Part shown: positions 3,781 through 34,326 of the stretch, one piece after another
How the letters are laid out: each line of letters begins with the position of its first letter
How positions within the stretch are numbered: position 1 is the first letter of the stretch
Assembly: GCA_003990765.1 (NCBI GenBank)
Contig: RBNJ01000261.1
Location: 1 to 35,077 of the forward strand
Direction: 5' to 3'
Length of the DNA: 35,077 bases
DNA from: Jimgerdemannia flammicorona
Lineage: Eukaryota
Notes under the pieces: generated by a model
The model's database searches: none
What the model was told of the DNA's origin: nothing
What the model saw: the letters and a program-made list of their open reading frames with translations, nothing else
Program-made: the position numbers and the translations under genes

Positions 3781-4631
3781 AACTCAGAATGCTACTCAGT
3801 AATTTAAATATGCTTTCCTAAAGTTCTGTATGCCAAAGTTGGCTCCAAGTACTGTAAGTTGTTGCATTTTGGCTGAGGATGCCGTTTTGATTTTGTTGCA
3901 ATATGTCGGGGTTCGGGACTAAAGCATTTTCTGGACAGTGCACTTGTAGGTGGGATGACATATTCAGGTGACGTTAACTGGCCGTCGATCTGATGTATAT
4001 AATTATATAGATGGGAGGCAAATTGTGCCATCATTCCACAACGTTAAATTGGACATATCACTAGGCATGTGCCTTGGTTTCCTTGGAAACACAAGCTACC
4101 AATTGCATGCCTGATTGGGATACACAATGACAATCGGGATCGACCTGAAAAAGACGGACCTGGCGAGTCGTTGTCAAATGCATGCTTGATTTGAGAACAC
4201 CCATACGCCCACACACCCACACTCGCAAACATGTGAATATCCTTGTCAAAGGATACCAATAGTGACAACCCCAAAGATATCAGTGTCCGTGTCAGGGTTT
4301 CTGCCACTGATGATCCCCTGGCTCGACTCATTGAAAGTCATTCTTTCAACCTTCAAGATATTCAAGAGGGTCGATTCATCACCATCGATGTCTTCAATGA
4401 AAAACCCAAGTCTGCAGACCTTAGAAAATACAGGAAAAGGTTGTTCTGGGCTCTCTTTTCGCAAGACGAATCCAGTTCCGCTTGGTGCCTGCTGCAGGAT
4501 ATATTATTAATTTGCTCTAAGCGTTGGATCTTCCTCGAGCTCAACGGTGACCACGACCTAGACGTCATCCCCTGAGAGTATGTGTGGGGCAACAATGCAT
4601 ATCTGACCAGCCAATGCATGTTCGTATGCCT

Positions 4632-5560
4632 GCACAATTCAAAGGGGCCTCAGATATCGAGCAATCCGAAGGAGCCTCAGACATTGCACAATCTGAAGGT
4701 CCCTCAGATATCGCACAATCCGAAGGGGCACCAGGCATCACACAATCCGAAGGTCCCTCATACATCACATAATCCGAAGGTCCCTCATACATCACATAAT
4801 CCGAAGGTCTCTCAGACATTGCACAATCTGAAGGGGCCCTAGGCATTACACAATCCAATGGTCCCTCCGCTGAAGGGGTACTAAACATCACGTAATCCGA
4901 AGGGTCTGAGTCATCACACAGTCCGAAGGGGTCCCAGGTATCACGCAATCCAAAGATCCCTCAGCCATTGCACAATCCGAAGAGGTCCCAGACATCGCGC
5001 AATCCGAAGGTATCTGAGCCATCACATAGTCTGAAGGGGCCTCAGCCATCCTGCAATCTGAGGGCATCTGAGCCATCATACAGTCCGAAGGGACCTCAGT
5101 AGTGCTCCCAAATGAATCAAATTAATTTGAATCAAATTGAATTGGGGTTGATTCAAATAAAATCAAATTGATATTTCAATTCAAATTAATTTGAGTTTGA
5201 ATCAAATTAGAGGAGGTCTGATTCAATTTAATTCAATCAAATTGATATCTGATTTGATTTGAAATTTTTATCCCAAATTCAAAATATAATAACTCAATGA
5301 AAACACATCCAAATTTAATATTCTTTAGTTTGCTGGATTTGCTTTAATAAAGAGTATCTAACAAACTAAAATTCATTTAAATTTAGATATTTTTTGTTTG
5401 AGTTATTGATTCAAATCAAATTAGCCCTAAATTTGATTTGAATATTTGAATTGGGGTCAAATTTGATTCAATTCAATTCGTTCTAAGCACTAGACCTCAG
5501 TCATTGCACAATCCAAAGGGGTCTCAGCCACCACACAATCTAAAGGGACCTCAGCCATTG
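4632..5560 (+). repeat. 27-bp tandem repeat (~19 units) inside the CHAT coding region, split by a MITE
   Basis: The unit is approximately CACAATCCGAAGGGGCCTCAGACATCG and reads HNPKGPQ(T/I)(S/L) in the CHAT frame. About 17 units precede 5100 and about 2 follow 5500. Confidence 0.9.
5100..5492. mobile_element. Non-autonomous hAT-type DNA transposon (MITE), copy 1
   Basis: Termini are TAGTGCT...AGCACTA with longer imperfect TIRs and subterminal AATTGAAT/TCAAATT repeats. A perfect 8-bp TSD GACCTCAG lies at 5092-5099 and 5493-5500. Confidence 0.9.
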
Positions 5561-8029
5561 AAGCTTCTGCACATCTTCAATGTTGTTCCGGACCCCATTG
5601 TTCTGCTGAATGATGCAATTTCCGGATCTGCATCTGAACGATCAGTTTCAGACAATATGTGATAAGTATGAGAAAATCAATCGAACTGTATTTCTGTAGT
5701 GTGTGTTCTCTCCTACGGTCGAGCGAATGTATGAACTGCTTAGGGACAAGCTGGAGATGGCCACGGTGCTTCATTTCATGGGACATTGCAGCTCGCAGAA
5801 TGGTGGTGTGAAGGCACTCATCTTTGAAGATTATGACACAGAGTCTCACCTTTGCTGACACGTTGCGCCTTGACACGACCATGAATCTGCGGCTGGCTTT
5901 TCTGCCTGCGATACTCGCCATGTTGCCCGGGACCTGATCGAAAACGGCATTCCATACACCATCGGTTCACACTGTCCTCTGCCAGACAACCTCGTCCGCA
6001 AGTTCGAGTCCAAATTCTATCAGTGCCTTGCCAGTGGCTACACGATCGAGACGGCGATGTTGGAGGTGTGCGCCTTCATGAAAGACCCAAAAGACATCTG
6101 ACAACGCAACTACTTCCCCGGTGCCATGGTGCTTTGTCCACATTTCATAAAGAAGACGGCACATTCAAGTGCGAGGAAGGAAAGCCCATGATCGAAAAGC
6201 ATATACCCCCCCACAATCTCGGAGAGATCTCCTTCATGAGATTTTTTTGCGGGCGCAAGGGGGAACTTATCGAGATAGCCGGTGTTTTGAGATGTATGGC
6301 GAAGAGAGGGACACAGACCTGTCCCTTATACACCATTGAAGGCATTGCCGGTCAGGGCAAGACGGCGTTGGCTGAGAAGGCAGTCAGGTAGATGGCGCAT
6401 CTCTTCCCTAGTGGCATCTTCGCTTGGCGGTTCGATCCTTCACACGCAGTATCGGCCATGAAATATCTTCAACACCTGAATAAGGTCATATTCGACGAAG
6501 AATTTGGCTTGGAACAGACCATCACCAAGAAATTTGAGTCCCATTCGACGAGTTTGCTTATCCTCGATCAAGCCAATGTCTTGAAGGACACCGTAAAGTT
6601 GGTAGACTGGCTTGCTTCAGAAGATTATGTCAATACCAGAAATCGCAGTAAGAATTCTTGTCACATCAACCTCTAGAGTGGGACACACGATACATCTCAA
6701 TGGTTTGACTAATTCGGACATTGACAGCAGGGTCGAGTTGTTCATTGGAAAACTTGACGCTCAAGTAAGGCGGAGGATGACGAACGAGACAAATATCACA
6801 CAGTTGCTCCACGACCTCGTCAGGCTTGTAAACGGATATCCACTGTGTCTGGAATCTCTTGTCCATGCAGCTGGCTTACTACAACATCGCAATGCATCAC
6901 TTGAGGAGCATCTCAATGTAATACTAGTTATGGAAAGAGAAACCTTGGAACCCGTTTCTGGCCAACCATCGACATGCTTCCAACACAACAACGTCTGCTA
7001 CTCTATATGTATTCTCTCTTCACTGGACCAATCACAGAAGGGGTGCTCGCGTTCATATATAATTTTGTCGACTTCGTATATTCGTCATCGGAGAAGGTCA
7101 ATTATAGTGATGAGAACCTGCAGCAACTATGCGATAGCAAGTTATTGTTGAAAAAGGACGATGAATACAAGATTCACGTCGCTGTTAGGGAAGGTGTGAG
7201 ACAGTAATTTTGCACATATGCTGATACATTAGTAATTGGCATTGCCAAGGCATCTAATCATGGTGAATAATGCAACTGAAATATGGTCTTTTTTTTTCCT
7301 TTATACATCTTTTTTTTTATTTTTCACCACAGGAATTTCCTTGGTGCTTGAATGGCAACTCATAATGAAGTGAGGAGCAGTACTTATGACATACAATATT
7401 ACGACATTGTTGACATTCTTGGCACCAGTGGCTATAAACTCGAAAAGAGCAGCGTGCAGCAGCACGTATTATTTGGTGGATTGATAGTGTTCAGACGTAA
7501 AGTATCCGAAATTCTTCACGCTAACTTTCCTGAGTTCTGCATGGAACACATCATACTGCTTGTGACAGAAAGCAAATCGCTGTTCATTTCATGTTTGCAT
7601 CATACCGATGCTGAGCTCGCTGAACGGTCTACTACCAATGCCGAAAAGAATATGGGTCTGATGAAGAAAGCCATGGAGACGTTGCAATCTGGTCTAGAGA
7701 AGATGCACTTTAAAATTAGGACAGAATCTCCTCCCAGTAAGTTGTCATCTCATCTACTCCCTGAGTAGTGATTGCTAGAAACACTCCAAACTCACAATAT
7801 CATCGTCGAACTGCTTATTTCATTACACAAACTGATAGAAATTGTCCTCGGAAAAGAGCAGTTCTCAAATACTTTGTAAGGTGAGCGGAAATTTTGGTAT
7901 AATAATGTGAAAAGGGGAAACTAATAGGAATCACTCACTGACAAAAACGCTTTCCATTAACCAATACAAAGTGAGCAAGGAGAATCAACCAACAATTAAG
8001 GTTGATTTCGGCATGGAAAATTTGTTGGA

Positions 8030-9705
8030 CGCCAGCATGACCTTGGCCACGTTGAATCTCGAAGATATGTCGGGACTGTGTGAAGCATTGTGTGTGACTA
8101 TGCAATGGAACCAAGTTCACGATCTATGTGTGTCCACTCATATATCTTCTGTTCACAGCATTGGTCACGAGGGGCATGCATCCTAACCGAGACTCTGAAG
8201 CAAAACAAGGCTTTGACCATGTTGAGTCTTGGAAGTACATTGTAACTGTGTGAATAATTGTATATAGCTGCACAATAGAAACAAGCTCACAATCTGTGTG
8301 TATTCACTTAATAATCTTGCTCATGTTCAGGGAACAGGATCAGTGACGAGGGGGCATGTGTCCTAGCTAATTCTGTGAAGCAGAACACGACCTTGACCAC
8401 ACTGAATCTCTAAGATATGTCAAAACTGTGAATATTTGTGTACAGCTGTGCAATGGAACCAAGTTTACAATCTATGTGTGTTCGCTCATCTGTCTCCTGT
8501 TCATTTTCAGACAATAGCATCAGCATGCACCCTAGCAGAGCCTCTGAACCAAAATGTGACCTTGACCACATTGATTCTTCACAGTATGTCAGAGCTGTGT
8601 GAAGTATCATGCCTGGATGCATGTTGGAATCAAGCTCACAATAGGTAACAGTATCGGCCACGAGGAGGTACATATGTGCCCTAGCTGAGTTTCTGAAGCA
8701 CAACATGACCTTGACTATGTTGAATCCGGGATGTATGTCAGAACTGTGTGAATCATTGTATATAGCTGCACAATGTAATCATGCTCACGATCTGTGCATC
8801 TTTGCTCATCCATCCCCTGTTCACATTCAGGGAATAGGATCACCAACAAAGAGGTACACACCCTAGCCGAGTCTCTGAAGCAGAACATGACCTTGACTAA
8901 GTGGAATTTCAGAACTGTGTATTGAATTAAGCCCACGATCTGTGCGTGTTCACTCATTCACCATTTTCATGTTCAGGAAACAGGATCTGCGATGAGGAGA
9001 CATACACCTTAGTCGAGTCTCTGAAACAGAACATAACCTTGATCACTTTGAATTTCGAATGTACATATGTCGGAACTATGCAAGGCATTGTATGCAACTG
9101 TATAATAGAATCAAGCTCATGATCTGTGTGTATTTGCTCATCTATCTTCTGTTTATATTCAGGGAAGAGCATCGATGGCCAGCAGGTACACTCTCTAGCT
9201 GAATCCTGATGCAGAACACGACCTTGACCATGCTGAATCTCAGAGGTATGTCGGGACTGTGTGAAGCATTGTATGCGGTTGGATCTATGCGTGTTCGCCA
9301 TCTATCCATGTTGTGCATCTGTGCAATAGAATCGAGCTCACGATCTGTGCACATTTGCTCATCTATCTCTGTTCATGTTCAGTCAACAACATCGGCGACG
9401 AGGGGGCATAATTACATCCTAACGGAATCTCTGAAGCAGAACATGATCTTGACCGAGCTGCAGAACTGTGTGAAACATTGTATGCAGTGCAATGGAATCA
9501 AACTCGCAATCTATGTGTATTCGCTCATCCATCCCCTGTTCATTTTCAGGCAATAACATTGGCCATGATGGAAAACTGAGATTCTAAGGTATTTTTGAAC
9601 TGTGAGCTATTAGATGTAGCTGCAAGATGGAACCAAGTTCACAATCTGTACATATTCACTCATTCTCTTTTCATCTTCAGGTAGTATCAGTAAGATGATA
9701 GCTGA
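8030..9705 (+). repeat. Tandem exon-intron array of ~10 RI-type LRR units (~170-180 bp period)
   Basis: Recurring exons of about 84 nt encode variants of NxIGDEGAxxLAESLKQNTTLTTLNL (e.g. ~8331-8413). They are separated by mutually similar introns (GTATGTC...CTGTTCATxTTCAG), some with mutated donors. Confidence 0.85.
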
Positions 9706-10132
9706 CCTATATAATCAAAATATTGAAAGTAGATAGGTTTCTTATTTTCAAACTTAAATGTTATATTAGATAATTGATCAAACTTTATTAAAATATCTGA
9801 AGATATTTTGAGAAATATAAAATATATTTATACTTTTATAACTACTATAATATTAATTATATATCAGAATTATGTAAAATATTTATAATATAATTTTATT
9901 TATAACTTGAGTATACTTATCTCTCTTTAATTTTTAAAAAAATAGCTTTTATTATAAGAGATATATACTTTAACTAAGTCTTTAAAATAAATTATAATTT
10001 TAGCTAAAATAAATATCTATATATTAGAATTATAAAATATTTTATATAATTATATTTTTTATATATTTATTTTATAAATATAACTTTACTATTTTAATAT
10101 TATAATTAATTAAATAATTATATTATAAAAAC

Positions 10133-10454
10133 TAATACTCTCAAATAAATCAAATCAAATTAAATCAAATTGAATTAGAGTTTGAATTGAATTGAGGTCT
10201 GATTTAATTTAAATTTTTATCTCAACTTTAAAATATAATAACTTAATAAAAACACATCTAAATTTAATATTCTTTATTATACTATATTTACTATAATAAG
10301 ATATATATATCTAATAAGCTAATATTTATTAAATTTAGATATATTTTGGTCAAGTTATTGAATTTTGAAAAATTAGATTCAAATTGAATTAGATTAGTCC
10401 TTAATTCTCAAATTGAGACCAAATTTAATTAGATTCAATTCATTTTAAATACTA
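10133..10454. mobile_element. hAT-type MITE, copy 2
   Basis: Homologous to 5100-5492, with transition-mutated termini TAATACT...AATACTA. A perfect 8-bp TSD ATAAAAAC lies at 10125-10132 and 10455-10462. Confidence 0.85.
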
Positions 10455-11014
10455 ATAAAAACTTTTATTATATTATTATTATTTTTTAAAATTAATATAA
10501 TAGCTAAGATTAGAGTTTAAATTATATTATTTTACTTATTTTTATTATAATAATAATATTTTAACTAAAATCTTTAAAATTATCTTTAAAGTTAAAAAAA
10601 AAACAAAAACAAAAAAAAAAACTTTACTATTAAAATATATTATTGATTAATTAATTTCTTATTTTTTTTTTTCTTTTTTTTATTAATTTATTTTAAATTT
10701 TATAATACCATTATATTATTCACATTTCAACTTAATCTTTATTATAATAAATTTTAAACTATAATCATTTTTCAATATCACATTCATTCCCACCACCAAT
10801 ACCAACACAAAACATTCATTCCCACCACCCTACACGAGTGCAAATATCCCAGACTGCAAAACCCACAAGGGGTCTCCTAACTCGAGGATCATGTCCAAGA
10901 TGCTCTTAAGCCCGCCTCTGGCGAGTCAGGGTGGGACGTTGGAGGCCGGCCGGTGGTGACGGCGAAGCAATGGGACAGACGGCGGCGAAGTAATGGGACA
11001 GGCGGCGGGCGTGC

Positions 11015-12890
11015 TCATTTGCCAACGTTCTCCTGACTCGAGATCATCTCCGCAATGTTTTTTTGCAGCTGGTTCCACTCGTCATCTTTGGGGATCGCCA
11101 TCTAATGGATTAGGTAGAACCGATCACAGAATGATAAGTTCCTCATTTCCCGAATCCGCAGAATATCATCACAATAATACAGATTGACTCACCTCGCCGA
11201 TATCATAGACATAAACCTTGCCGTCGCTGGATCCGATCGCTGTCTTCTTACCCTCCTTGTCCCAGTTGATCTTGTTAAGCGCCTTGCCCTGGCCCACCGG
11301 GGTGCTGACAATTGGAATCTGGGAGATTGTTCGGGGTTGGGTGAGGGTGAATCGGGAAAGAATATTATGATATCGTAGCATGCAATCGCATTCAAAACTA
11401 CCCGCTTTCAATCATCACAAACCCAAGCCTCATATCACTTGCCCTAAACATACCTCAGTATCGGCGTTCAAATTCCACAAATCAAACTTGCCCCCTCCGT
11501 CAACGGCGCCGAAGAGGGCCGGGTGTGTGGGCGACCACTTGACGTCGTACACGTAGTCGTCCGCTTGCTCGAACGAGTAGAGCGGCGCGATGATCGTCGG
11601 TTGTGTCGACGGCTTGGCGATAGACTGCAGGTGGTGGGGATGGTGGGGGCGTGCGTTGATATTAGTCCAGAAAAAAAAAAAAAAAAAGTTCCAAACTTTC
11701 ACGATTCACCATTATCCGTTCAGGCCCACCGAACCTTAACTCACCCTCGCCCTCCACAACTTGACGGTCCAGTCGACCGAACAGGTGAGAAACAGGTCCG
11801 AGAAGTCGACTTGCCCCAAAAGAGGATGGAACTGCATGCCCGTGATCGTGCCGTAATGGCCCTTGTAGGTGTCGTACTGGTTGATGCCGGCCTTGCTGTT
11901 GGTACGTGACGGAGGGCAATAATGGAATTGGGTGAGATAACATCGAAACGCAATAACTGTCGCGTAAGAATCCTTGGTAATGTATACACCACCCTTTTTG
12001 CACCCAAAATTATCTCTAACACCACTCCTACAGCTCGCCGCTCCTCCAAAATTGGATCATCTAAACTATTCCCTGGAGAAAAAAAATTGTTATAAAAAAA
12101 GGCTCGTCTCACAAACTCACCTTCCAGCCCTGCCATACCGATTCGCTTGATACACACTCCCTTCCTCCGTCCCAACCCAAAATGTGGTGGTCTCATTATC
12201 CGGGAAATCGAGAGTCGTGATCGACACCTCCTCGATATTGTGATGGTGTAAGGGATGCGACAGCTCGAGTGAGTCCTGCGGCTGCGCCAACATGTCCAGT
12301 TGCCAACTGCATACGGTCCCGTCCGTGCTAGCGGAGATGAGGTTGTGTGCGTTCTGCGTGCCGACCATGGTGAGCGAGTACACCGGATGCGTATGCCCAC
12401 CCGCCGATAGGGGGGTCTTGAGCACGGGAAGAGCCTTCGCGCGCGTGTCCCACAGGACGATCTGGCCCGAGTAAGTGCCGCCAATGACATAGTTGCGGTG
12501 GAAGTCCGAGAACATAACTGCCAGGACGTCGGATTGCGAGTGGAAGACGAATTCGGGACGTTCGAGGAGGTGGAGATTCCAGATGCAGGCCACGCCGTCG
12601 GGTTCGTTGACCGCCATAGGGTTCTTGTTGTAGGAAGCGACGAGGAGTTCGGGGTCCTGTCGTACGTCGGGGAAAGGAGTATAAAGTAAGACCAATGATA
12701 CTAATTGATTGAGAAACTGGGGTTGTTCAAAGGATGTATACCTTGGGCGACCACCCGACGTCGGTAACAGACCTGTTCTTGGACCACTTCTCGTCCCAGA
12801 ACTCGCAAAGGAACTTGACACGCTTGCCGGAAGCGACGTCGCTATACAATTGTGCAATCGTGTAAAACGCGTGAGTTGAAATCCCCCACC

Positions 12891-12935
<45 letters not shown>

Positions 12936-14230
12936 GAGATGCCAATCCCTTCTACCCGCCTATCCGAAAACTTTCCTCGCATAATTAAACAAAATATCGC
13001 TCCCACGTCATTCAGGGCCAAAAACGAGCCAAATAAATAAAACTCACCCCTCGACATCGGCCCCGATGGTGTAATCCTTCATGAAGTCATACTTTTCGTT
13101 CAGGGCGCGCTCGACAATCTTGGATGAGTGGTCGACAAAATCCGCGAAATCGAACGAGGTGAGGATGGCGCGTTTCTCCTCCTCCGTGAGTTCTGTTGAA
13201 CGAGAAGAAAGTGAGAGTGAATATTACGGGCGTGGTAAAAACAACACGCACCATGGAAATCGGGGTGCCATCGAAGAAGAAAAGATACAACGCTTGCGAT
13301 CCTCCCACGATACAATCCCAAAGCCAAAAGTATACACACCTCTCTTCTCTTTCACTTTCTCCATCTCCTGCCTCTTCCTCTCCTCGTCCGCGGCCTGCTG
13401 TTTGGCCTTCTGCTCTTTTTCCACCTCGTCCATGATCTGCGCGCGAATTTCTTCCTCAGACCGTTGAGGCGCGTCGGTGCCGGAGTCAGTCGTCTGGGTG
13501 AGTTTTTCATATGTAACTTTATCCTGGGGAAGGAGTTGTTTGGGGAGGAAGTGAGGAAGATGAGCTGGTGGGGAAGTGCGGAGAAACGAGAGGAGCAGGT
13601 ACGAAGAGGTGGGTTGGAGGGAATAAAAGGGTTACCTCGGGAGGAATATCGGCGGGATCGGTTTCCGAGATGGTGAGTTTGGGAATGTAGCGCGCCGCGT
13701 CGGTCATTTGGGTCATACTGTTGCGGGTGGAACTGCCAAGTTCGGGAAGGCATGGATCAGTAATGAAGGGTATGACGCGCTTCGAACGATTTACAACCAC
13801 CCATTTACAAGCATCGTTGCTTCCGTCCAGCTCTCTACCGTACCTAACGGGCGTCTCCGGCGCCGACCCAGGAGGGTAGGAAGAAGGGAAGATGGAGGCG
13901 ACGGCCTCCGAGCCAGCATCCGAGCCGCGGTCGGAGGAGGGGCCACTTGGGGTGGTGGGACGCTCGCCGAGGGCGAGGGCGACGAGGTCATCGATGGCCT
14001 TGCGATCCTTGCCAGGGGCAACGGAGGAACTGGTGGTGGCGACGGGGAGCTGGGAGGGAAGGTGGTGTCTTTAGAGTGTTGAAAAGTAGAATGGAGGCAC
14101 AGCACTTTGGGCTTCAACTTACGGCGGAGGCGGCGGACCCAACCAGGGCGGACTTGCGCTCCTCCCTTGCGCGCCTGAGCTCTGCGAGCTTTTGACGCTT
14201 CTTTTCGAGCTCGTCTTTGCGGCGGTCCAT
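11015..14230 (-). CDS. Cytoplasmic dynein 1 intermediate chain (WD40), about 11 exons
   Basis: N-terminus [25 protein letters not shown] (ATG at 14230). Conserved segments include [69 protein letters not shown] and ALNKINWD. The last exon [19 protein letters not shown]...GK* ends at TGA 11015-11017. Introns are GT-AG. Confidence 0.95.
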
Positions 14231-14375
14231 TTATTTGGTAGGTTAGGTTCAAACAAGCACAAGGGAGAAGTGGGAAGGAGAGAGGGAGGGTTATCGGATG
14301 AATAAAAATCGGGTGCAGGACCTGGACCAGGGACTGCTCTGCTGCCCTTTGACTGTTGACCCTTAACCAAAAACC
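14231..14375. promoter_or_regulatory. Compact divergent (bidirectional) promoter region
   Basis: Only 145 bp separate the head-to-head start codons at 14230 (-) and 14376 (+). Confidence 0.6.
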
Positions 14376-16738
14376 ATGAAGGACAAGGACAAAGACCCAC
14401 CATATTTCCCAACACATCGTTACTCTTCCCGATTCTACTTTCAGCGCCGGGGCTCTCTGACCCATCTGCTTGTCGCCGGCCTCGTCCTTGTCTTCCTGTA
14501 CCTCTTTTTCTTGCGGAACGACCCTGCCCCCGTGACCCAAGCCCTTATTGCGTCCGAGCACATCAATGTCGTCGACGGCTCGTGGAACGAGCGCTCCAAC
14601 TGGCACCGCGACCAGAATGAAGAGATACGCTCCCGTCGCAGTGTCTACACTCCAGACTTGTTCAGGTCAGACGCGCTCAAGACTAATGGGCTCATACCCG
14701 TTACCGCCGTCTTGCTCAGCTGGAAGAGACCCGAGGGGCTGAAGAAGGTGGTCCAGTACCTCGTCAGGTACCCATTTATCAAAGAGATCCTCATCTGGAA
14801 TAACAACAAGAAGACCAGGCTGAACATTAGGGTAGGCATTGGCTTCGGGTTCTCGCTGCATTCGGTTTTTTTTTTCCGCATTATTGATTTCATCCACATC
14901 CTCCTTGTTCAGGATTTCGAGCTCAACGCGACGACCACCGCGCATGTCGAGATCACCGTCTTCAACTCGGACGAAAACCTGCACGACCTGGCCAAGTACA
15001 CAACCTGTGCCATAGCCCGCCACGACTACTGCTACTTCCAGGACGACGACTGGATCAACCTCTACCTCGACAGCGAGTACACCAACTTCCTGGGATTCCC
15101 GGACCTCATCCACTCCAACACTATGCCCATCATCCACCTCGAGCATCGGAGATGGCAGTTCACAAATCCAGGTTTGTTATGTGATTGTATGTGAAGTAGA
15201 GTTTGAATGGGATATTACCACAGTGAACAGTACCGTTGATCGCCCATTTCACCCCAAACTTCTCTCTCCCCGCTCCCCTCAGATATTAATCTGCACGCCG
15301 GCTTCACCTGGCTCGGCTGCGGCTCCTTCATCCCCCGCGTCAAGGTTCAGCGCTTCCTCGCGCAGCTTGGCTCGGCGGGCCTGGGCAAGGACCGCCTGCG
15401 CCTCGCCGACATGTACTTCTCCATTTGGACAAATCAATACCCTTACCAGCTCTCCAACCCACTCACCCCGCTCGATCAGAAGGAAGGCTGGAGCGACGAC
15501 GTCGATCAGTGGACGATTGTGTATCAAAATTTGGTTAGCATTATTTGGCAGTCGGAGGGACGGAGATGAGACGTGGTGTGGGAGATTAGGGATGGGATGG
15601 CAAAATGTGTCGCAGGGTCCATGATATTTGTTACTTAAACCTTGACACGCTACGTTTGTTTTTCCTGGCCGTCCTTCGCAGTATGACGCCAGCACGAAAT
15701 TATACAAGGCACTTGCGGCCAACTCCATCATCACCCGCAATGACTATTTCATCCGCGAGGAAGAAGAGCCGAGGCCTGAGTACCGCGACGCGCGGTATGT
15801 GTAAATGCTTTGCTTTCTCTCTCTGGTCATTCTGTTTGTGGCAGTGTGTCCGTCGGGCATGGTTTCTCGTATTTTACTCCATTTTCTCTGTTTGGTTATA
15901 TTACTATGTTTTATACTATTATACTAATTCGTTTATCATCACCCTTGTAGCGCCCCCTGCCTGAACGACCGGTGCCTCTTCCTGACCAATATCGACCCCT
16001 TCCCACACCCTTTGAGCGTCGTCTTTGACAACGTGAACATCACTCACATTAAGGACCAGGAGGCGCTCTTCAACGTGCTCAACTTTCCCTCGAACGACTT
16101 CTGGACCAAGCACGCGTACCACTACGCTGTCGATCAGAACGACAATACGTGCTGGAATTCGTATGATGGTGAGTTTGGATTTGTTGGTGTGCTGGGCAAG
16201 AAAGGGCGTTGGTGGACGTACATTTTATTTTTATGGCTTCTCCTCTTACTGTTGTGTCGATGCGTATAATCTAAATATATATTCCCCGCCTGTCCCTAGC
16301 CCCTCGTGTTGGAGACTACTTTGGCCTTCACATGGTCACCCCAATCATCTCCAAGCGCATGACCATTGTTTCCTCTCACGACATCAGCGGCCTCGAGAGC
16401 GCCTTTGCCATCTCCGTCTCTACCAACGGCAAGTCCTGGGTACGTCCTCCCTCCCCATATTTATCTGTTTATCCTCCATTCTCGTCCACGCATTTTTTTA
16501 ACCTCACTCATACATCTCATCCATCCCCATACAGATGGCATGCAAAAACCTCCCTCTCCCGTCCAATCCCACCTCGAACCTCGCTGCCGCTGCCGCCGCT
16601 GCCGACGGCCATCGCCTGACCATTGGCTTCGCGTGCCCCATCACCGAGCCCTTCCGCATGGTGCGCGCCGAGTTCCAACAAGATTTCGTAGAACCGTTCG
16701 AGGTATGCGCTATCGGGCTCGACGGATTCGCCGTGTGA
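14376..16738 (+). CDS. Putative type II membrane glycosyltransferase-like protein (GT-A fold, GT64/EXT-like), about 7 exons
   Basis: N-terminal TM helix LLVAGLVLVFLYLFFL, then VTAVLLSWKR...IKEILIWNN and a DxD-type motif CYFQDDDW. Approximate exons: 14376-14831, 14913-15171, 15283-15532, 15681-15795, 15951-16168, 16300-16439, 16535-16738. The gene is clear but the family call is tentative. Confidence 0.7.
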
Positions 16739-21332: not shown

Positions 21333-23551
21333 ATGAAGACATCCACCGTAGCTCTCATTGCTGTCGGCGCTGTCGTTACGGTTGGTATCGGCTATGCAAT
21401 CTACTTCGACCAGAAGAGGAGAAACGATCCAGAATTCCGGAAGAGGCTAAGTACGGTCGCCCCCAAAACCCCGCCAGCAACCTTCGCGTTTGAAAACCAC
21501 CATGTCTGAGCTTCCCCTGTATCTCGGTGCCGCACCCTCATCCAGAGCGTGAACGCAAGCGCCTCCTCAAGGTCAAGAAGAGCGAAGAGGAAGCCTTCAA
21601 GAATAAGGCGGCTGAGTCCATTAGTCAAGCCCTCGACGAAATCGCCAACGAAACTTTCCCTGTTACCAACCAAGACAAAGAAAAACTCTTCGTCGAAGAG
21701 GTCGCAAAGGGCGAGGAACTGGCCGCGCGGGGTAGGTGGACATACTATCCTGGATTTTGGTTCTTCGCTTCTCGGCTTACGGTGCTTTTTTATTTGGAAT
21801 CTAATTAATGTCCCGTAATTGAGCGGTTCTCTTAACTTGTTACTCCGACACGATTATCTGAACGCTCAATTTCACCGATTTGCGCATGCATCCTTGGTAC
21901 AGGCGAAGAATTCTACAATGAAGCTGCCGTGAGCTTCTTCCGCGCACTCAAGGTGTATCCCTCCCCCGTCGAACTCGTCATGATCTATCAAAAGACCGTT
22001 CCGGAGCCCGTGTTCAACCTTGTCATGGCGATGATGAGCCTTGATGTGAGTTTGTTTGATTTTGCGGTTGGTCGCAATCATGCTATACATATTAGTATTG
22101 TGAGACAACGTGGAATGGAATTGCCTGTAGACACACGCATTTCAAATGAATCTATTCTGACATGGAATGGGGATACCCCCCCCCCTTTTTTTTTTTCGAA
22201 AAAAATAAAAATAAAATAAAATAAATACAGGTGAAACGCAAACAAGAACTTTATTACAAAGTTTACCCACCCGCCGAAATGAACGTCCGGATAGACGAGC
22301 TGCCCGAGGGGGTCACGGATGACGGCAAGCAGATTATCCGTCGGGGTTTGGTGGCCACACGTGATTTCGACGAGGGAGAAGTGATTTACACCGAGATTCC
22401 TGTTGTTTCGGCGCTTGAGCCCGCGTTGGAGGTTAGTGTGACACACGCCAGCATGTAAAAATGATCCGGGACATTCACGATGGCCGAGAAAACAGGGGTT
22501 TCGGCGCGCGGGGATATCGTTATGTTGGACATCGTTCGGAGGTTGGATTTGACTTAACCATTTATTCTCGGTTCACATACAGGGTCAAGACTTCTGCAAT
22601 TTCTGCCTGAAACAAATCCCAGCCTCTGAATCCACAGTCACTTGCTCCATAGGCTGTGAAAAGGTCGTCTACTGCTCCACCGACTGCGAAAAAAAGGCGG
22701 TCGCACAATATCATCAATACCTTTGTACATCCTCTCTATCTCTTAGCTCGAAGGAGCACGAGTTTGCGACTTACGCTACCAAAAACAACGTCAAGTATCC
22801 CGGCATGATTGCGCGGTTTCTGGCGACGATGGTGTATGAGGAGACCACCAAAGTCCCCACAGGTCGGGACGACGAATACAATACCTGGGATCATATCGAG
22901 CGGTTGAGGTTCCTCGAAGTAAACCCAGGTCCGACGGAGGCGTTAGAGATCAAGTTACTGAAAGAGCTGTTGGGACCCAAGGTGCCTGGCATTGATGAGT
23001 TTGTGACAGAAGAGAGGTATCTAACATTAAAGGGAAAGTTGCAATATAATGCATATGGAGTTGAGACGGTGGCAGAGGGCGAGAAAACAGTTCCGGTAAG
23101 ACGTTATTGAAATTCATCTTCATGATGGCGTGTATCGTTTAATTACTGAAGATGTCGCATAAATGTTACATTTTCATCTCACATTCACTGCCAATCCCAT
23201 TTATTCCAGAAATCCCCCGAACAACACCGTAACGCACGTTCCACCTCCCCGGCACACCCGCTCACCGGCGCTGCCCTCTATCGTGCCACCTCGTACCTAG
23301 CGCACTCGTGCGAGCCCAACACGGCGGTCTCGTTCCCGCGGCGCACACAGGAGCTCGCGCTAGTGGCGACCCGCCCCATCAAGCAGGGCGAGGAGCTGAC
23401 GACGAGCTACGTCCAAGTTGACTCCGACGGGGAGCCGGTGCGCGGTCATGTTGAGCGCAAGAAGGAGCTTGCAGACGCGTTCAGGTTCAAGTGCGCATGT
23501 AAAAGGTGTGAGAGGGAAGAGGCGGCGGCGGCGTCATCGGATAGAGATTGA
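21333..23551 (+). CDS. TOM20: Mitochondrial import receptor Tom20 (MAS20) fused to a split SET/MYND-like (SMYD-type) domain, 6 exons
   Basis: Tom20 motifs: GYAIYFDQKRRNDPEFRKRL, EEVAKGEEL and FFRALKVYPSPVELVMIYQKTVPEPVF. SET/MYND motifs follow: RGLVATRDFDEGEVI, CNFC...CSIGCEKVVYCSTDC...HQYLC, YLAHSCEPN, GEELTTSYV and FKCACKRC. Approximate exons: 21333-21450, 21547-21731, 21903-22045, 22231-22431, 22583-23095, 23210-23551. Confidence 0.92.
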
Positions 23552-24624
23552 GGGAGCCGGCTGGGTAGGGAGTAGGGTTTGTTGCCATGTCACATATACT
23601 TGACGGCTATTGTGTGGATTCGAAATGGGTGTTAACGGTGCGGGGTCAGGGAGCTGTGGTGCAATAGAGTATCATCTTTCACCTGTGCGAAATTCTTCTG
23701 TTTATCCATTTTGGATTTCTTTTCGTTTTTGGTATTTGTATCTTGATTCTGGTGCAGACTTTTTTAGACATATTCGAATACCTAGTCTCAACATAAGTAC
23801 TCGTATATATATACTCGTTGAAATTTTAAGTGTGCAAGCCACAACAAATTGATGACGTAAGCGCGGTGACGTAAGCATGATATTCTCCCTCCTCTTCTAC
23901 CATAAACCTTTCGAACGGCTCTTGAACTGTCACTACGACAGAGGTTCTCGCAAGATGATTTTCAACGTTGGTGTGATTACCCCGCCTGTATAAGGGACAG
24001 CGCCATAGATGTTTTCGTAGAAGAGATTTGATTAGAAATTTTGGTGAGGGAATAGAATTTTTCTCAGGTAACTGTTTCTGAGGGAAAATGACTCTGCCAA
24101 TAAATTATAAATGCTTTACAACTCATTCATTCTACATGTCGTCCGTTTGGAGATATCAAAGGACAAGTCTGGCCTTTTCGTTTTGCCTTTTACCCTATAC
24201 ATTTTGTAACGTCACAAAGGAGTCTTAAAAACACCTGTCCTATCTTTGAGGTTGTCGCATCAACGACGAGTGGATGCAAATCCCACCGGGACTGGAGAAG
24301 AGAAGCCTTAAAACAAGGAGCTAGGCACGGTGGAATGAGGGCTTTTTTTTTTTTTTTTTTTTTTTTTTTTGCAATGTGCCAAAACAGTTTACTATCACTT
24401 CCGTATTCTAATGATCCAGAGTCATCTACTTGACGTCCCCTTGCCCCCGAACCCCAAACCTAGTTCTCTACCTTCATGTTTCAAGCTAGAACCTCGGTGC
24501 CGCCGTCCCTGCGAGGCCAGATTATGGAGCGCCGTCCCGCAAAGAGTTTGTCCCCACAAAGAGATTCGGCAGCCGCCGTCCTCGGTTAGCTTGGATGCAG
24601 TGGGGGTTGCAATGGCAGAGCAGC

Positions 24625-25203
24625 CCACGCCACACCACCCACAATCTATCACCAAGCCGTCGACGCAACCGACGGCCATCGTGCCGCTCTACTCGTTCGA
24701 GCGGGCGGACGACTACGTGACGTCAAGTGGTCGTCCGCACACCGGCGCCGTCGACGGAGGGGGAAAGTTTGATTTGTGGAATTTGAACGCCGATACTGAG
24801 GTGTATGTTTAGGGCCATGTGATGGGACTAAGGTGGATGTGGGGAGTGAGGTATGGGTTTGTGGCGGATAGATATGAATGCAATTGCATGCTACATGCCA
24901 TAATATTCTTTCCGATTCACCCTCACCCAATCCCCAGATTCCAATCGTCAGCACCGGGCAAGGCACTCAACAAGATTAACTGGGACAAGGAGGGTAAGAC
25001 AACGATCCAACGACGGCAAGGTTTATGTCTATGATATCGGAGAGGTGAGTCAATCTGTATTATTATGATGATATTCTGGGAATGAGGAACTTATCATTCC
25101 GTGATCGGTTCTACCTAATCCATTAGATGGCGATCCCCAAAGCTGACGAGTGGAACCAGCAGCAAAAAAACATTGCGAAGGTGATCTCGAGTCGGGAAAT
25201 GAG
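24625..25203 (+). pseudogene. Duplicated, degenerate 3' end (last three exons with introns) of the dynein intermediate chain gene
   Basis: Reverse-complement match to ~11015-11655 including introns, and homology continues into the 3' UTR. It carries small frameshifting deletions, and the first acceptor CAG appears changed to CAA near 24643. Confidence 0.92.
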
Positions 25204-25764
25204 CACGTCGCCGCTTGTCCCAATACGTCGCCGCCTGTCCCATTGCTTCGCCACCGGCCGGCTCACCAGAGGCGGGCTTAAGTGCATCTTGGACATGACC
25301 CTCGAGCCAGGAAACCCCTTGTGGGTTTTGCAGTCCGGGATATTTGCACTCGTGTAGGATGGTGGGAATGAATGTTTTGTGTTGGTATTTTCATGTTGAG
25401 ATATGTGTATGTGTGGTGGGTGGTATTGTCTTTTTTTTTTTTTTCATAATGAGTAAATTAAATGTGATATTTAAAAATGATTATAGTTTAAAATTTATTA
25501 TAATAAAGATTAAGTTGAAATATGAAAGATATAATGATTTTTAATTTCTAAATTAATAGAAGAAGAAAATTAATTAAATTATTAATTTATAATATATTTT
25601 ATAATATATTAAAATAGTAAGTTGTTTGTTTGTTTGGTTACATATTTTAACCCTAAAGATAATTTTAATGATTTTAATTAAAATATTATTAATATTAAAA
25701 TAAATAATATAATATAATTTAAACTCTAATATAATAGTTATAATATATAAATAATCATTAAAAA

Positions 25765-26134
25765 TAGTGCTCTCAAATAAATTAAATTAATTTAAATTAA
25801 ACCAAATTAGAGTTGATTTAAATCAAATTGAATTAAGGATTTTTCAATTTGAATTGAATTGAGGTCTGACTCAATTTGATTTAAATCAAATTGAGGTTCA
25901 ATTCAATTCAAACTTAAGAGTCAAACTTTTGAAATATAATAACTTAACCAAAATATATCCAAATTTAATAATTTTTATTATACTAGATTCCCCTAGATAA
26001 GATGAATCTAATAAGCTATAATTTATCAAATTTAGATATGTTTTTATCAAGTTATTGAATTTTGAAAATTAAGCTTTGAATTGAAACTCAAATTGAATTA
26101 GATCTTAATTCAATTTAATTTATTCTGAGTACTA
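25765..26134. mobile_element. hAT-type MITE, copy 3
   Basis: Termini TAGTGCT...AGTACTA, homologous to copies 1 and 2. The 8-bp TSD is ATTAAAAA (25757-25764) / ATTAGAAA (26135-26142), differing by one transition. Confidence 0.85.
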
Positions 26135-26567
26135 ATTAGAAAAACTTAATAACTAAATCAAACTCTTAAAAATAATATATTTAAAATATATATTAATAAT
26201 CTAATCTTAGCTATGTATTATATTAACTTTAAAAATTAAAAAAAAAATTATAATAAAATTTTTATTTAGTTAATTATAATATATTATAATAGTAAAGTTA
26301 TATTTATATAATAAGTTTTAATCTTTTTATATAACTATATAAATATTTTATATAGTTCTGATATATATAATTAATATTATATATAATAGTTGTAAAAATG
26401 TATATATTTTATATTTTTCAAAATATCTTCAGATATTTTTTTCAAATTATATAAGAACAGTTCATATATCTTTATTAAATATTAATAAAGTTTGATCAAT
26501 TGTCTAATATAATATTTAAGATCAAAAATAAGAAATCTATCTACTTTCAATATTTTGGTTATATAGG

Positions 26568-28620
26568 TCAGCTATCATCTTGCTGATACTACCACCTGAA
26601 GATGAAAAGAGAATGAGTGAATATGTACAGATTGTGAACTTGGTTCCATCTTGTAGCTATATCAAATAGTTCACAGTTCAGAAATACCTTAGAATTCCAG
26701 CATGGTAAAGGTTGTGTTCTGCTTCCAAGACTCGGCTAGAGCGTGTTTTCCATTGTGGCTAATGTCATTGTCTGAAAATGAACAGGGGATAGATGAGCAA
26801 ACATGCACAGATCGTCATTGCGCAGCTACATACAATGTTTCACACAGTTCTGACATACTGAAGAGTTCCAGCTTGGTCAAGGTCGTGTTCTGCTTCAGGG
26901 ACTCCGCTAGGACGCATGCCCCCTCGTCGCCAATGTTGTTACTGAATATGAACAGGCCGGAAACGGGTTTCAAGGTTTCTCCTTCCATATGAGCCATCCA
27001 CTAGCATTGTATTGAGGTGTTCATGAACGAGTTCCTCAAGCGATGCATTGCGATGTTGTGGTAAGCCAACTGCATGGGCAAGGGATTCCAGACACAGCCC
27101 ATCCACGAGCCTGACGAGGTCGTGGAGCAACTGTGTGGTATTTGTCTTGTTCATCATCCTCCGCCTTACTTGAGCGTCAAGTTTTCCAATGAACAACTCG
27201 ACCCCATTGTCAATGTCTGAATCAGTCAAACCATTGAGATGTATCACGTTCTCCGCTGCATCCCACTCTAGAGGTTGATGTGACGTGGCAAGAATTCTCA
27301 CTGCGATTTCTGGTATCGATATAATCTTCTGAAGCCAGTCTACCAACTTTACGGCGTCCTCATCGCCTCTGACGTGTGCACGCTTCAAGACATCGGCTTG
27401 ATCGAGTATAAGCAAACTTGTCGGATAGGACTCGAATTTCTTGATGATAGCCCGTTCCAACGTGTGAAATTCACCGCCAAATTCTTCGCGGAATATAACT
27501 TGGCTCAGATATTGAAGATATTTAATGGCCGATATTGCGTGCGAAGGATCGAACTGCCAAACGAATATGCTACCGGGGAAGAGATGCGCCATCTGCCTGA
27601 CCGCCTTCTCAGCCAACGCCGTCTTGCCCTGACCGACAATGCCTTCAATGGTGCATATGAGATGAGACTGCATGCCACCATACGTCGCAGAATAGAGTAC
27701 AATTCGACAAGCTCCTTTTTGCGTCTACAAAAAGTGGAAGTTGCGGGGATTGCTTCGAGATTGTGGTGGGGCATATGTAATTCCACTCTGGGCAAACCCT
27801 CCTCACACTTGAATATGCCATAATCTACAAGACGAAGACGAGTAAAGAACCATGGTACCGGGGAGATAGTATTTTTGTCAGATGTCTTTGTGATCATAGA
27901 GAAACACACGCGCCCTCCACATCGCCATCTCCACCGTGAAACCACCGGCGAGGAACTTGTAGAAATTGGATTTGAACTTGCGGGCGAGGTCGCCCGGTAA
28001 CGAACAATACAAACCGATGGTGTGCGGAACACCCTGTTCGAACAGGATCCGGGCGACTTCGCGAGGATCGCAAGCAGACAGGAATGCAAGCCTGCACTAT
28101 TCTGGTTATTCCCAAGAGTTGTGGCAGGTTAACGAATTCCGGCTTACCGGTCTCGGTATGTTCAAAGACTAGTGCTCTCGCACCGTTCTTTGTGTCACAG
28201 TGTCCCATGAAATGAAGTGCCGTAGCTGACTGAGGGTTGTTCATGAGCAATGTGTCCATTCGGCCGACGGTGGGAACACGCGCTCCAATATTACTTTTTT
28301 GTTGTTGAGGTAGTGTTCGTTAATGAAGTTCTGGAATTGATCGCTCAAATGCAGATCTGGGAGGCTAGCATCAACGTCGTCTGGCGGGGAGATAGGGTCC
28401 GGTACGATGGCGACAATGCGCAGCGGAAGATTCGGCAGCTGGAGTCCCTTTGGTTTTTGAACTCTTGCGAACATGCATTGGTGAACCAGATATGCATTGT
28501 TTCCCCACGCATATTCCCAGGGGATGGCGTCGAGGTCATGGTCGCCGTTGAGTTCGAGCAAGACACAACCGGTAGGGTTAGGGGATATTATCTGCTGCAG
28601 TCGCTGCTATGACGTAGATT
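26568..28620 (-). pseudogene. NLR-like pseudogene CHAT + NB-ARC + LRR (copy B, internally deleted)
   Basis: Motifs: LDAIPWEY, HFMGHC (28197-28214), LAFLSAC (Cys codon 28070-28072), GIVGQGKT and LLILDQAD. It then joins directly at ~26955 to the LRR exon NNIGDEGACVLAESLKQNTTLTKLEL. Several frameshifts are present and the 5' limit is uncertain. Confidence 0.85.
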
Positions 28621-29087: not shown

Positions 29088-29342
29088 TTTTTTTTTTTTT
29101 TTTTTTTTAACAGACCCAAAGCTCTGTGGAATTTTATTAGAAGAGAACCTAGACTAAATAGGCCAAAAACCTCTCTCATCTCTACCCCAAGTACTACTCT
29201 CCTATTGTTCTTAGACTGTAGAGAGAATCAGCAGTCTCACTATCCCAGTTATATAAGAACAGTGTTTCATATTCTCATCTCAACAATATATAAACCAGAC
29301 TATGGAATTCACTAAAGTTAGATTATCAGTAGAAAACTAAGA
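29088..29342 (-). mobile_element. Probable 5'-truncated poly(A)-tailed retroelement fragment
   Basis: A T run at 29088-29108 is followed by about 235 bp of CpG-free sequence. It is flanked by the imperfect direct repeat AGTATATA..ACT(A/G)GATC (~29072-29087, ~29344-29362). Confidence 0.45.
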
Positions 29343-29362
29343 GAGTATATATATACTGGATC

Positions 29363-31940: not shown

Positions 31941-31945
31941 GCTCT

Positions 31946-32309
31946 CATAAGAAACTTAGAGGGCCTCTCTCCTTCTTCCAGCCCCTGCCAATGAAAATGT
32001 AAGAGGGTTGCTTTTTAGAGTAACTGTTACATAGTTCAGGAAGGGTTTTCTGGAAGTTCTGGATATTCTGGAAGACTGTTTTCTTATGGTCAAGATCAAT
32101 TTTGTATGGAGTACATCCTCTACACTTATTGATTTCAAGATCAGGTTGACATCTCAACCAAAGTCCTTTTTCGGACTAGTTCTGGATATTCAGGATTTTC
32201 CATATTTCAGGAAGTTCAAGAAACTAAGACCAGCTTTTGAATCGGCATACTGCTGCAGACAATACCCAATTAGGAAATTTCGTGATAGAGTTAGGAGTGG
32301 GACCTAACA
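31946..32309 (+). mobile_element. Probable solo or partial LTR of a different retrotransposon
   Basis: A noncoding block between the LINE and the chromovirus LTR, with short internal repeats (TTCTGGAAG/TTCTGGATA) and ending ...CCTAACA. The 5' TG end and a TSD were not identified. Confidence 0.4.
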
Positions 32310-33906: not shown

Positions 33907-33920
33907 ACTCTCCCCTTCTT
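33907..33920 (-). other. Polypurine tract (plus-strand primer) of the LTR retrotransposon
   Basis: AAGAAGGGGAGAGT on the minus strand, directly before the LTR start TGTAAG. Confidence 0.75.
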
Positions 33921-34326
33921 AGCTTTCGACGTCCTCATCGGGGCCTTCTAATTTTGTTCTAGTGTTGTTATACTATTTGGGAGATCAAAATTCTGGTAAA
34001 ATCCATTTTTCTCAGAAAGTGGCATGCTTGTAGTACAGTTGCCTAATGCATTGGATTCACATATTAAAGGGTTGTGTATTCAATACCATGCACCGGAAGT
34101 GATTCTGACATCATTTACTGCTGGAGAATTTCCTCTAAGGAATCTTCTTAAATGTCTACACCTTGTTTCCCACCAGTGGTACAGGGAGAATAGGCTTGCT
34201 TTCAGTTTTGCTATTTTTCCAGAGGTTTGGTATTCTTGTCTTGTTTTACTGAGTTCTTGGTTTACGATAATTAATATTCAAGAGATATAATATATAGTAT
34301 ATATGGATAGGTGTGGGGTATTGGTT

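Follow-up and report, generated by a model that had tools for sequence, protein, structure and literature searches.

A probable CHAT-NB-ARC-LRR receptor gene preserved as two decayed paralogs in Mucoromycota

Introduction

Does the genome of a Mucoromycota fungus hold the remains of a receptor in which a CHAT protease, an NB-ARC-type nucleotide switch and a sensor of leucine-rich repeats (LRRs) were joined in one chain? This question is raised by a 35,077-nt stretch of Jimgerdemannia flammicorona DNA (GenBank assembly GCA_003990765.1, contig RBNJ01000261.1, positions 1 to 35,077 of the forward strand; hereafter the window), in which an earlier reading made from the letters and translations alone (the sequence-only reading) had placed such a gene together with a second broken copy. 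According to passages of two reviews (PMC12881547, PMC9815663), fungal NOD-like receptors (NLRs) sense through TPR, ankyrin or WD40 repeats rather than LRRs, as the one of 2022 puts it, and the one of 2025 adds that no LRRs have been identified in fungal NLRs and that the nucleotide-binding site-LRR (NBS-LRR) architecture appears to be absent from fungi, in agreement with the sequence-only reading. The same passages describe CHAT proteases and CHAT-NLRs that are encoded beside gasdermin genes in Ascomycota, including one TPR-bearing CHAT protease that activates its gasdermin (PMC12881547, PMC9815663). In a 2025 survey of 122 fungal proteomes, with LRR profiles included, some species of Mucoromycota had no more than a single NLR, and passages of its main text mention no NB-LRR (PMC12258605). 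Our own literature search found no report of a CHAT-STAND-LRR protein or of a fungal NBS-LRR.

Here, we propose that the locus as a whole is probably best explained by two decayed paralogs, copies A and B, of an NLR-type CHAT-NB-ARC-LRR receptor gene. From the gene structure, we are fairly confident that the CHAT, NB-ARC and LRR segments were parts of one gene. Effector, switch and sensor would then have stood in one polypeptide: CHAT and the switch share one exon, and the link to the LRRs is suggested by the chain of exons and by a boundary that is conserved among relatives.

Results

We found that copy A spans 4231-9736 on the forward strand and carries, in order, CHAT, a STAND NTPase with its winged-helix end, two short exons, 10 LRR exons and a tail exon. 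The first exon (4231..7262, with its ATG at 4231), now a pseudogene, holds the CHAT domain, the STAND (NB-ARC-type) NTPase and the winged-helix end. In a frame-aware alignment of the CHAT and NTPase parts to residues 28-771 of an intact relative (P0001), 339 of 685 aligned residues (49%) were identical. Specifically, the exon contains the motif ELNGDHDLD (4537-4563), a CHAT dyad region (5769..5918) with the His motif LHFMGHC (5769-5789) and the Cys motif SACDTR (5901-5918), and the NTPase motifs FCGRKGEL (6245-6268), GIAGQGKTA (6341-6367), LLILDQ (6554-6571), RILVTS (6651-6668), NGYPLCL (6831-6851) and YKIHVAV (7166-7186), the last five of which follow one another in that order and are conserved in the family alignment. 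We take the LHFMGHC and SACD motifs to mark the catalytic His and Cys of CHAT/caspase-like proteases, and the five NTPase motifs to be the P-loop, Walker B, RNBS-B-like, GxP and MHD-like His motifs. The coordinates and motif list of the sequence-only reading were thus correct, with all named motifs on one strand and in the stated order, subject to three qualifiers, of which the one on copy B is given below. Its series of PWE, HFMGHC and LAFLSAC does occur in order, although in copy A PWE reads P-stop-E, owing to a TGA that ends at 4575, and the Cys motif is cut by a frameshift just before it, at 5897. Homology of copy A to its relatives stops at '...YKIHVAVREGVRQ', after which the frame reads '...IGIAKASNHGE-stop' (7262-7265).

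Downstream of this end, the next open frame begins on the same strand after a gap of about 70-108 nt that is T-rich and contains CAG. We read this gap as a putative phase-1 intron (7263..7370) from the NTPase exon to the sensor exons, with the donor CATG/GTGAAT, a T-rich tract, a CAG at 7330-7332 and an alternative AG at 7369-7370. It would lead into exon X1 (7371..7736), 366 nt long and bounded by AG and GTAAGT, which is open in phase 1 for 122 codons, would encode a linker of ~122 residues, and matched no Pfam family and showed no similarity to the relatives. Exon X2 (7779..7880, 102 nt, phase 1, boundary uncertain) comes next, followed by the LRR array (7972..9588), which consists of 10 units of one ~84-nt exon and one ~60-137-nt intron each. 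The LRR exons lie at 7972-8064, 8159-8234, 8331-8414, 8511-8584 and 8645-8732 (exons 1-5) and at 8831-8912, 8977-9060, 9163-9245, 9383-9462 and 9550-9588 (exons 6-10), and the array ends in a tail exon (9681..9736) that reads SISKMIADLYNQNIESR before a stop. X1, X2 and the first LRR exon (93 nt) are all divisible by 3 in length, and all LRR exons are in phase 1.

Each LRR exon holds one 28-residue repeat with the consensus N-R-I-x-D-E-G-x-x-x-L-A-E-S-L-K-Q-N-T-T-L-T-x-L-N-L, a period and consensus that presumably place the repeats in the ribonuclease inhibitor (RI)-like LRR class used by animal NLRs. The sequence-only reading's count of about 10 LRRs was accurate, and its RI-type label fits this period and consensus. 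The 10 exon-plus-intron units align end to end when their borders are picked by hand, and they match one another in self-BLAST with E values down to 1.5e-74, which places the repeat structure far beyond chance; Tandem Repeats Finder (TRF) gave no report of these units. A profile of six LRR exons weakly matched the LRR domains of tropomodulin and leiomodin (E 0.0015-0.0034). As a separate observation, the introns of the units (7972-9680) are more alike (74.0%) than the exons (64.1%) in one hand-bordered alignment, and the blocks CTCACGATCTGTG and CTGTTCATNTTCAG are conserved within the introns. The greater likeness of the introns may mean that the sensor exons have diversified or that splice signals are under constraint.

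The CHAT assignment in the sequence-only reading held up in profile searches. Pfam CHAT (PF12770) was found in 41 of the 51 relatives scanned, with close relatives at 41.5-69.7 bits (E 1e-10 to 4e-19), and a profile built from 13 relatives retrieved the solved CHAT protein 8tl0 (E 5.2e-8). In the window, the Pfam match is marginal and covers a fragment (5874-6101; 24.5 bits against a cut-off of 24, E 2.1e-5). Both copies retain the dyad motifs LHFMGHC and (LAFL)SACD, which are presumed to be catalytic. A sequence search of the PDB with the Cys-motif fragment of copy B returned no CHAT match, and the CHAT half of the AlphaFold2 (AF2) model of the relative P0005 has a pLDDT of <50 and gives no structural evidence on CHAT.

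The switch appears to be of the NB-ARC type, a conclusion that leans mainly on the relatives and less on the broken open reading frame (ORF) of the window. The fold of nucleotide-binding domain, helical lid and winged helix was tested on P0005. Residues 410-775 of the P0005 model, its nucleotide-binding and oligomerization domain (NOD), have block-mean pLDDT values mostly between 66 and 91, and the best structural matches were the wheat G10 resistosome (9h2l, Z 20.1, 334 residues aligned) and WRR4A (9qlv, Z 17.4), followed by CED-4 (2a5y, Z 14.8), Apaf-1 (1z6t, Z 14.3) and ZAR1 (6j5t, Z 14.3); no NACHT NLR was among the best 50 structure matches listed. At a Pfam cut-off of 23.5 bits, NB-ARC scored 24.1 in P0002, 24.7 in P0003, 19.0 in P0001, 34.8 in P0019 and 47.4 in P0028. 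The clear matches, up to that of P0028, came from more distantly related CHAT-TPR proteins. The NACHT score was lower than that of NB-ARC in most relatives, the higher ones being found in P0031, P0032, P0033, P0046, P0048, P0049, P0053, P0058 and P0062. NACHT (PF05729) reached 17.5 bits (E 0.0039) on the longest ORF of copy B, below its cut-off of 26.7.

Copy B (28606-26537, reverse strand) is an inverted partial duplicate of copy A. Its CHAT and NTPase part (26955..28606) has no counterpart of approximately the first 110 codons and breaks off behind the lid domain; against about residues 115-670 of P0001, 301 of 574 residues (~52%) are identical in an alignment whose printed form includes a spurious upstream piece. 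The motifs recur on the reverse strand as IPWEYAWG (28525-28502), LHFMGHC (28217-28197), LAFLSACD (28090-28067), the P-loop GIVGQGKTA (27643-27617), Walker B LLILDQ (27415-27398) and RILATS (27298-27281), and the longest intact frame (27724-26939) encodes 261 aa. Two LRR exons follow on the same strand (26942-26859 and 26771-26688, the latter with a TAA), which are orthologous to exons 9 and 10 of copy A, and then the tail exon (26595-26537) with the same tail and stop (26590-26537). The sequence-only reading had taken the same order in copy B as a recurrence. The motifs are indeed there, but only two LRR exons remain and the end of the NTPase is gone. Since copy B arose by duplication of this very locus, the agreement in domain order gives the architecture no independent support.

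Three matches relate the copies: 4523-4646 of A to 28569-28446 of B, 5901-6963 of A to 28078-26955 of B at 74%, and 9369-11639 of A to 26955-24630 of B at 70.6%. Copy B has no counterpart of 6964-9368 of copy A: a 2.4 kb deletion has taken out eight LRR exons and the linker together with the winged-helix end of the NTPase, and the NTPase now directly abuts the end of an LRR intron. The duplicated flank beside copy B (24630..26536, reverse strand) matches the copy A flank at 9737-11639 and includes dead 3' exons of a dynein gene, with dynein-like frames at 24339-24812. To judge from these matches, the two ends of the duplicated segment fall within the CHAT gene and within the dynein gene, respectively. 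A and B have the final pair of LRR exons in common, as well as the tail exon with its stop, which implies that the LRRs already lay downstream before the duplication. The inverted segmental duplication measures ~7 kb (4523-11639 / 28569-24630) and flanks 13 kb of unique sequence with the dynein intermediate chain, Tom20 and SET/MYND genes.

As the sequence-only reading had stated, both copies are decayed. Copy A contains six stops, one of them a TGA at codon 2 (4234-4236) and the others ending at 4575, 5699, 6101, 6391 and 7207, and six frameshifts (5624, 5853, 5897, 6139, 6623 and 6952). Its CHAT domain is also interrupted by a 907-nt insertion (4633..5539, forward strand) that is skipped in the alignment to P0001 and is not found in copy B. 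The insertion is made up of a 27/54-bp tandem repeat (4633-5099, by TRF) and an AT-rich element (~5100-5492, ~390 nt) that recurs at 10182-10454 and 25765-26134, in both duplicated flanks, and that may be a small mobile element. The tandem repeat has about 17 copies and grew from local CHAT coding sequence. Among the LRR exons of copy A, the length is divisible by 3 in 4 out of 10, 8331-8414 contains a stop, and the donors after 8912 and 9462 are lost. Copy B has four frameshifts (28263, 28106, 27829 and 27677) and two stops (28097 and 27878). On these lesions we regard both copies as pseudogenes, neither of which can make a protein today, and the locus as non-functional.

The neighboring gene for the cytoplasmic dynein intermediate chain (11020..14150, reverse strand), which lies tail to tail with copy A, served as a control for assembly quality and as a taxonomic marker. 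Compared with residues 1-640 of P0076, 468 of 632 residues are identical, and the gene has 10 introns of 79-225 nt with no stops and no frameshifts. This flawless neighbor argues that the lesions of the CHAT gene are real and not assembly errors. The best 20 database matches of its large exon are all from Mucoromycota (Phycomyces, Umbelopsis, Spinellus, Cunninghamella, Lichtheimia, Rhizopus and others, at 80-85% identity), after which come Basidiobolus and Basidiomycota at 75-80%. This places the host within Mucoromycota, as a fungus that is itself missing from that database.

Before their decay, the copies appear to have been under selection. Over 507 codons, A and B differ with pS 0.404 and pN 0.206, giving a Nei-Gojobori dN/dS of 0.41 (bootstrap 2.5-97.5% range 0.32-0.52), a ratio that is somewhat understated when transitions dominate, as they do between A and B; the differences fall 125/97/163 on the three codon positions. 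A value this far below 1 indicates that the gene was once under selection and that at least one copy, probably both, kept its function through much of the period after the duplication. Where the copies differ, copy B kept the residue of P0001 70 times and copy A 49 times. We also considered repeat-induced point mutation (RIP) as the cause of decay and rejected it, given that the A/B substitutions are symmetric, the NTPase part showing 138 transitions against 60 transversions; for the AT-rich blocks, RIP indices were not diagnostic.

We then compared the locus with its relatives. A first homolog search with the 261-aa ORF gave no match at E <=0.001, and an exhaustive search found 63 relatives. 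The closest, from environmental assemblies, are CHAT-NTPase proteins with 40-50% identity over the CHAT, NTPase and winged-helix parts. Two of them, P0001 (1270 aa) and P0068 (1307 aa), are CHAT-NTPase-ankyrin proteins in which an intronless ankyrin sensor, in place of the LRRs of copy A, starts directly after the 'KASNG/QTLLH...' boundary. That their ankyrin sensor begins at the same residue at which the homology of copy A ends identifies this boundary as the border between switch and sensor in the family. P0001, P0068, P0003, P0005, P0066 and P0067 all share the motifs of copy A and have the switch/sensor boundary at the same residue, and none of them shows an LRR. In addition, the ORFs of eight relatives from different 50%-identity clusters (P0004, P0005, P0008, P0009, P0012, P0014, P0066 and P0067) end 0-3 residues from the boundary, and 7 out of 8 finish in [G/S][K/E], as reading into a donor x/GT[AG]AG would give, in a comparison of the protein ends alone. 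We therefore suggest that the boundary carries a putative phase-1 intron in most family members. Metagenome contigs yielded one related locus (L001, 1515 nt), which ends before the C-terminal boundary. Distant relatives (P0021 to P0063) are bacterial CHAT-NB-ARC-TPR proteins with 28-37% identity in the NTPase, and their Atlas clusters are mostly from Cyanobacteriota and other bacteria.

Several observations weigh against a single CHAT-NB-ARC-LRR gene. At the join, X1 falls out of frame by one base if the canonical-looking acceptor at 7332 is used, and the AG at 7370 was chosen to fit; the intron between X1 and X2 would be only 42 nt long, X2 ends in a TAA just before its donor GTGAGC, and a separate LRR gene could begin with the ATG at 7352, which a TGA immediately precedes. 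In the domain searches, the copy B ORF (27724-26939) matched AAA_22 in Pfam (E 9.3e-6), with NACHT, NPHP3_N and nSTAND3 below cut-off and no match to NB-ARC (PF00931) at E <=0.01, and Foldseek placed a model of this 261-aa ORF, which lacks the winged helix, among general AAA+/ORC structures, with Apaf-1 at rank 19. The NB-ARC call of the sequence-only reading hence stands on the fold of P0005, on Pfam matches in some relatives and on the motif set, but not on a Pfam match of the window ORF. LRR_6 (PF13516), run on single exons, matched 2 out of 6 exons (copy B 26860-26940, 18.4 bits, E 0.0021; copy A 8333-8410, 17.2 bits, E 0.0051), both under the Pfam cut-off of 23.4, and the other four gave no match. 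Finally, none of the 51 relatives scanned with Pfam (among the families listed, the best 25 for some) and none of the 16 with precomputed Pfam annotation has an LRR, and the Protein Atlas look-alikes of P0005 fall into CHAT, TPR, NACHT and GUN4 clusters, none with an LRR. Of the claim that sensor and protease lay in one chain, the joining of CHAT and switch is borne out by their shared exon, whereas the LRR join is argued from gene structure.

One alternative is that of two genes, in which a sensor-less CHAT-NTPase ends at the stop at 7265 after '...KASNHGE' and an LRR-only (RNI-like) gene runs from the ATG at 7352 through X1, X2 and the LRR exons. That ATG stands right behind a TGA and opens a stop-to-stop frame of 138 codons (7352-7768) that encloses X1, the ORFs of eight relatives stop at the same place, no relative among those scanned has a fused LRR, and X1 is unlike the relatives. 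Nevertheless, we consider two genes unlikely. About 85 nt would have to hold both a 3' end and a promoter, while the other spacers of this region are AT-rich and of kilobase size, and the ~85-nt stretch, with its T-rich tract and CAG, resembles the end of an intron. Moreover, the ends of the relatives are confined to [G/S][K/E], as a GT[AG]AG donor predicts, two relatives have an ankyrin sensor from exactly this residue, and STAND NTPases normally have a sensor arm, as is established and summarized in passages of the 2025 review.

Even less probable, in our view, is a secondary join that never functioned, whereby a CHAT-NTPase gene that had lost this sensor, or never had it, acquired an LRR array or part of another gene on its downstream side, with the collinearity a by-product of rearrangement in a repeat-rich region. 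The region has certainly been rearranged (the inverted duplication, the 2.4 kb deletion, the 907-nt insertion and AT-rich repeats), and the closest intact relatives have ankyrin repeats. Against this, the end of the array that A and B share, with two LRR exons, tail exon and stop, predates the duplication, the CHAT-NTPase part still evolved at a dN/dS of 0.41 after it, and every sensor exon is in phase 1, as is the putative donor. It is also highly improbable that the gene is intact in the organism and that its stops and frameshifts are sequencing or assembly errors. Frameshifts are common in uncorrected long-read assemblies, yet the dynein gene next door runs over 640 residues and 10 introns without a stop or frameshift, copy A carries six substitution-type stops, the 907-nt insertion and broken LRR exons and donors, and copy B has a 2.4 kb deletion. 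We therefore retain two decayed paralogs of one CHAT-NB-ARC-LRR gene as the preferred explanation.

The remainder of the window provides the context of this locus. Spacers of ~20% GC alternate with genes at 45-55% GC, and the Pfam scan for neighboring families took in 37 ORFs of >=90 aa. A Tom20 (MAS20) exon followed by a zf-MYND and SET domain gene (21836-23551, forward strand) was recognized by Pfam and represents an ordinary housekeeping context; the Tom20 exon matched the 185-residue Tom20 chain 9i7s with E 1.1e-8 and animal Tom20 only with E 0.1-0.4. Beside the 5' end of the dynein gene lies an open frame of 275 codons without a Pfam family (14367-15194, forward strand), contained in a block at 13-17 kb with 52-55% GC and many overlapping open frames on both strands. 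A strong strand asymmetry was observed in 29300-35077, which flips near 32000 (29300-32000, G 12.7% and C 29.8%; 32000-35077, C 15.2% and G 24.4%); ORFs of >=90 aa in this region gave no Pfam match, and no tandem or inverted repeat accounts for the skew. There was no Rfam match anywhere in the window.

Discussion

The combination of a CHAT effector with a nucleotide switch is ordinary, as CHAT-NLRs are known in fungi and bacteria. The new part is the LRR sensor, in what is a probable CHAT-NB-ARC-LRR receptor. Compared with the fungal CHAT-NLRs and gasdermin-clustered CHAT proteases of Podospora and other Ascomycota, as the review passages describe them, the locus, if it was one gene, shares an N-terminal CHAT, a STAND switch and a C-terminal repeat sensor, as well as the presumed logic of sensing, oligomerization and proteolysis. 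It differs in having RI-type LRRs in place of TPR, ankyrin or WD40 sensors and a Mucoromycota instead of an Ascomycete host, and in that both copies are dead. Furthermore, a gasdermin gene adjoins the protease in the fungal clusters covered by those passages, whereas no gasdermin family was among the Pfam matches of the 37 window ORFs, as the sequence-only reading had noted for the window; this is a weak test, because genes in this stretch are split by introns and fungal gasdermins are divergent. Bacterial CHAT-NB-ARC-TPR proteins likewise pair CHAT with an NB-ARC/NACHT-like NTPase, and differ in their TPR sensor, their lack of introns and their prokaryotic hosts.

Plant NBS-LRR and animal NACHT-LRR receptors resemble the locus in placing an LRR sensor after a nucleotide switch. 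The switch fold modeled for P0005 is closest to the group of plant NLRs, CED-4 and Apaf-1, and the repeats resemble the RI-like class used by animal NLRs of the NOD/NLRC type (28 residues, N-x-I-G-D-E-G-A...L). The effectors of the plant and animal receptors are TIR, CC, CARD or PYD domains, in contrast to the CHAT protease of this fungal lineage. An NB-ARC-type switch paired with RI-type LRRs is not known from plants or animals, and with the CHAT effector added the combination matches neither the plant nor the animal family.

We propose that the ancestral gene would have had one long first exon for an N-terminal CHAT protease and an NB-ARC-type switch of P-loop domain, helical lid and winged helix, followed by a phase-1 intron, a linker exon and a sensor of at least 10 28-residue RI-type LRRs. 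Each LRR would have occupied its own 84-nt phase-1/phase-1 exon, and the array may have grown as exon-plus-intron units were duplicated in tandem. If the protein worked like other NLRs and like the CHAT-NLRs of fungi and bacteria, the LRR arm would keep an ADP-bound NB-ARC closed until a ligand or a modified self-protein releases the switch, nucleotide exchange might then lead to oligomerization, and the clustered CHAT domains could cleave a substrate, such as a gasdermin-like pore former, resulting in cell death or non-self rejection. Later, the segment from inside the CHAT gene to inside the dynein gene was duplicated in inverted orientation 13 kb away. For a time the copies evolved apart under purifying selection, and both died thereafter, copy A through stops, frameshifts and the repeat insertion, and copy B through loss of its 5' end, the 2.4 kb deletion, stops and frameshifts.

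Extending this to the phylum is tentative, and we lean slightly towards doubt. Mucoromycota may have, or may recently have had, NBS-LRR-type receptors with a CHAT effector, which would represent a third independent assembly of switch and LRRs beside those of plants and animals. Such receptors could have arisen as symmetric phase-1 exons were shuffled and arrays of LRRs or of ankyrin repeats came to be attached at the same intron, and intact members could be hidden behind an intron in ORFs that end in G[K/E]. The gene structure, in which a long CHAT-NOD exon is followed across a phase-1 intron by LRR exons of 84 nt, is searchable, and it would be missed both by prokaryote-style ORF calling and by Pfam scans of short exons; the full value of the finding hinges on an intact, spliced member. 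If our reading is true, a CHAT-NB-ARC-LRR gene in Mucoromycota would be the first counter-example to the absence of NBS-LRRs from fungi, even as a relic once under selection, and LRR sensors would have been joined to nucleotide switches more than twice in eukaryotes.

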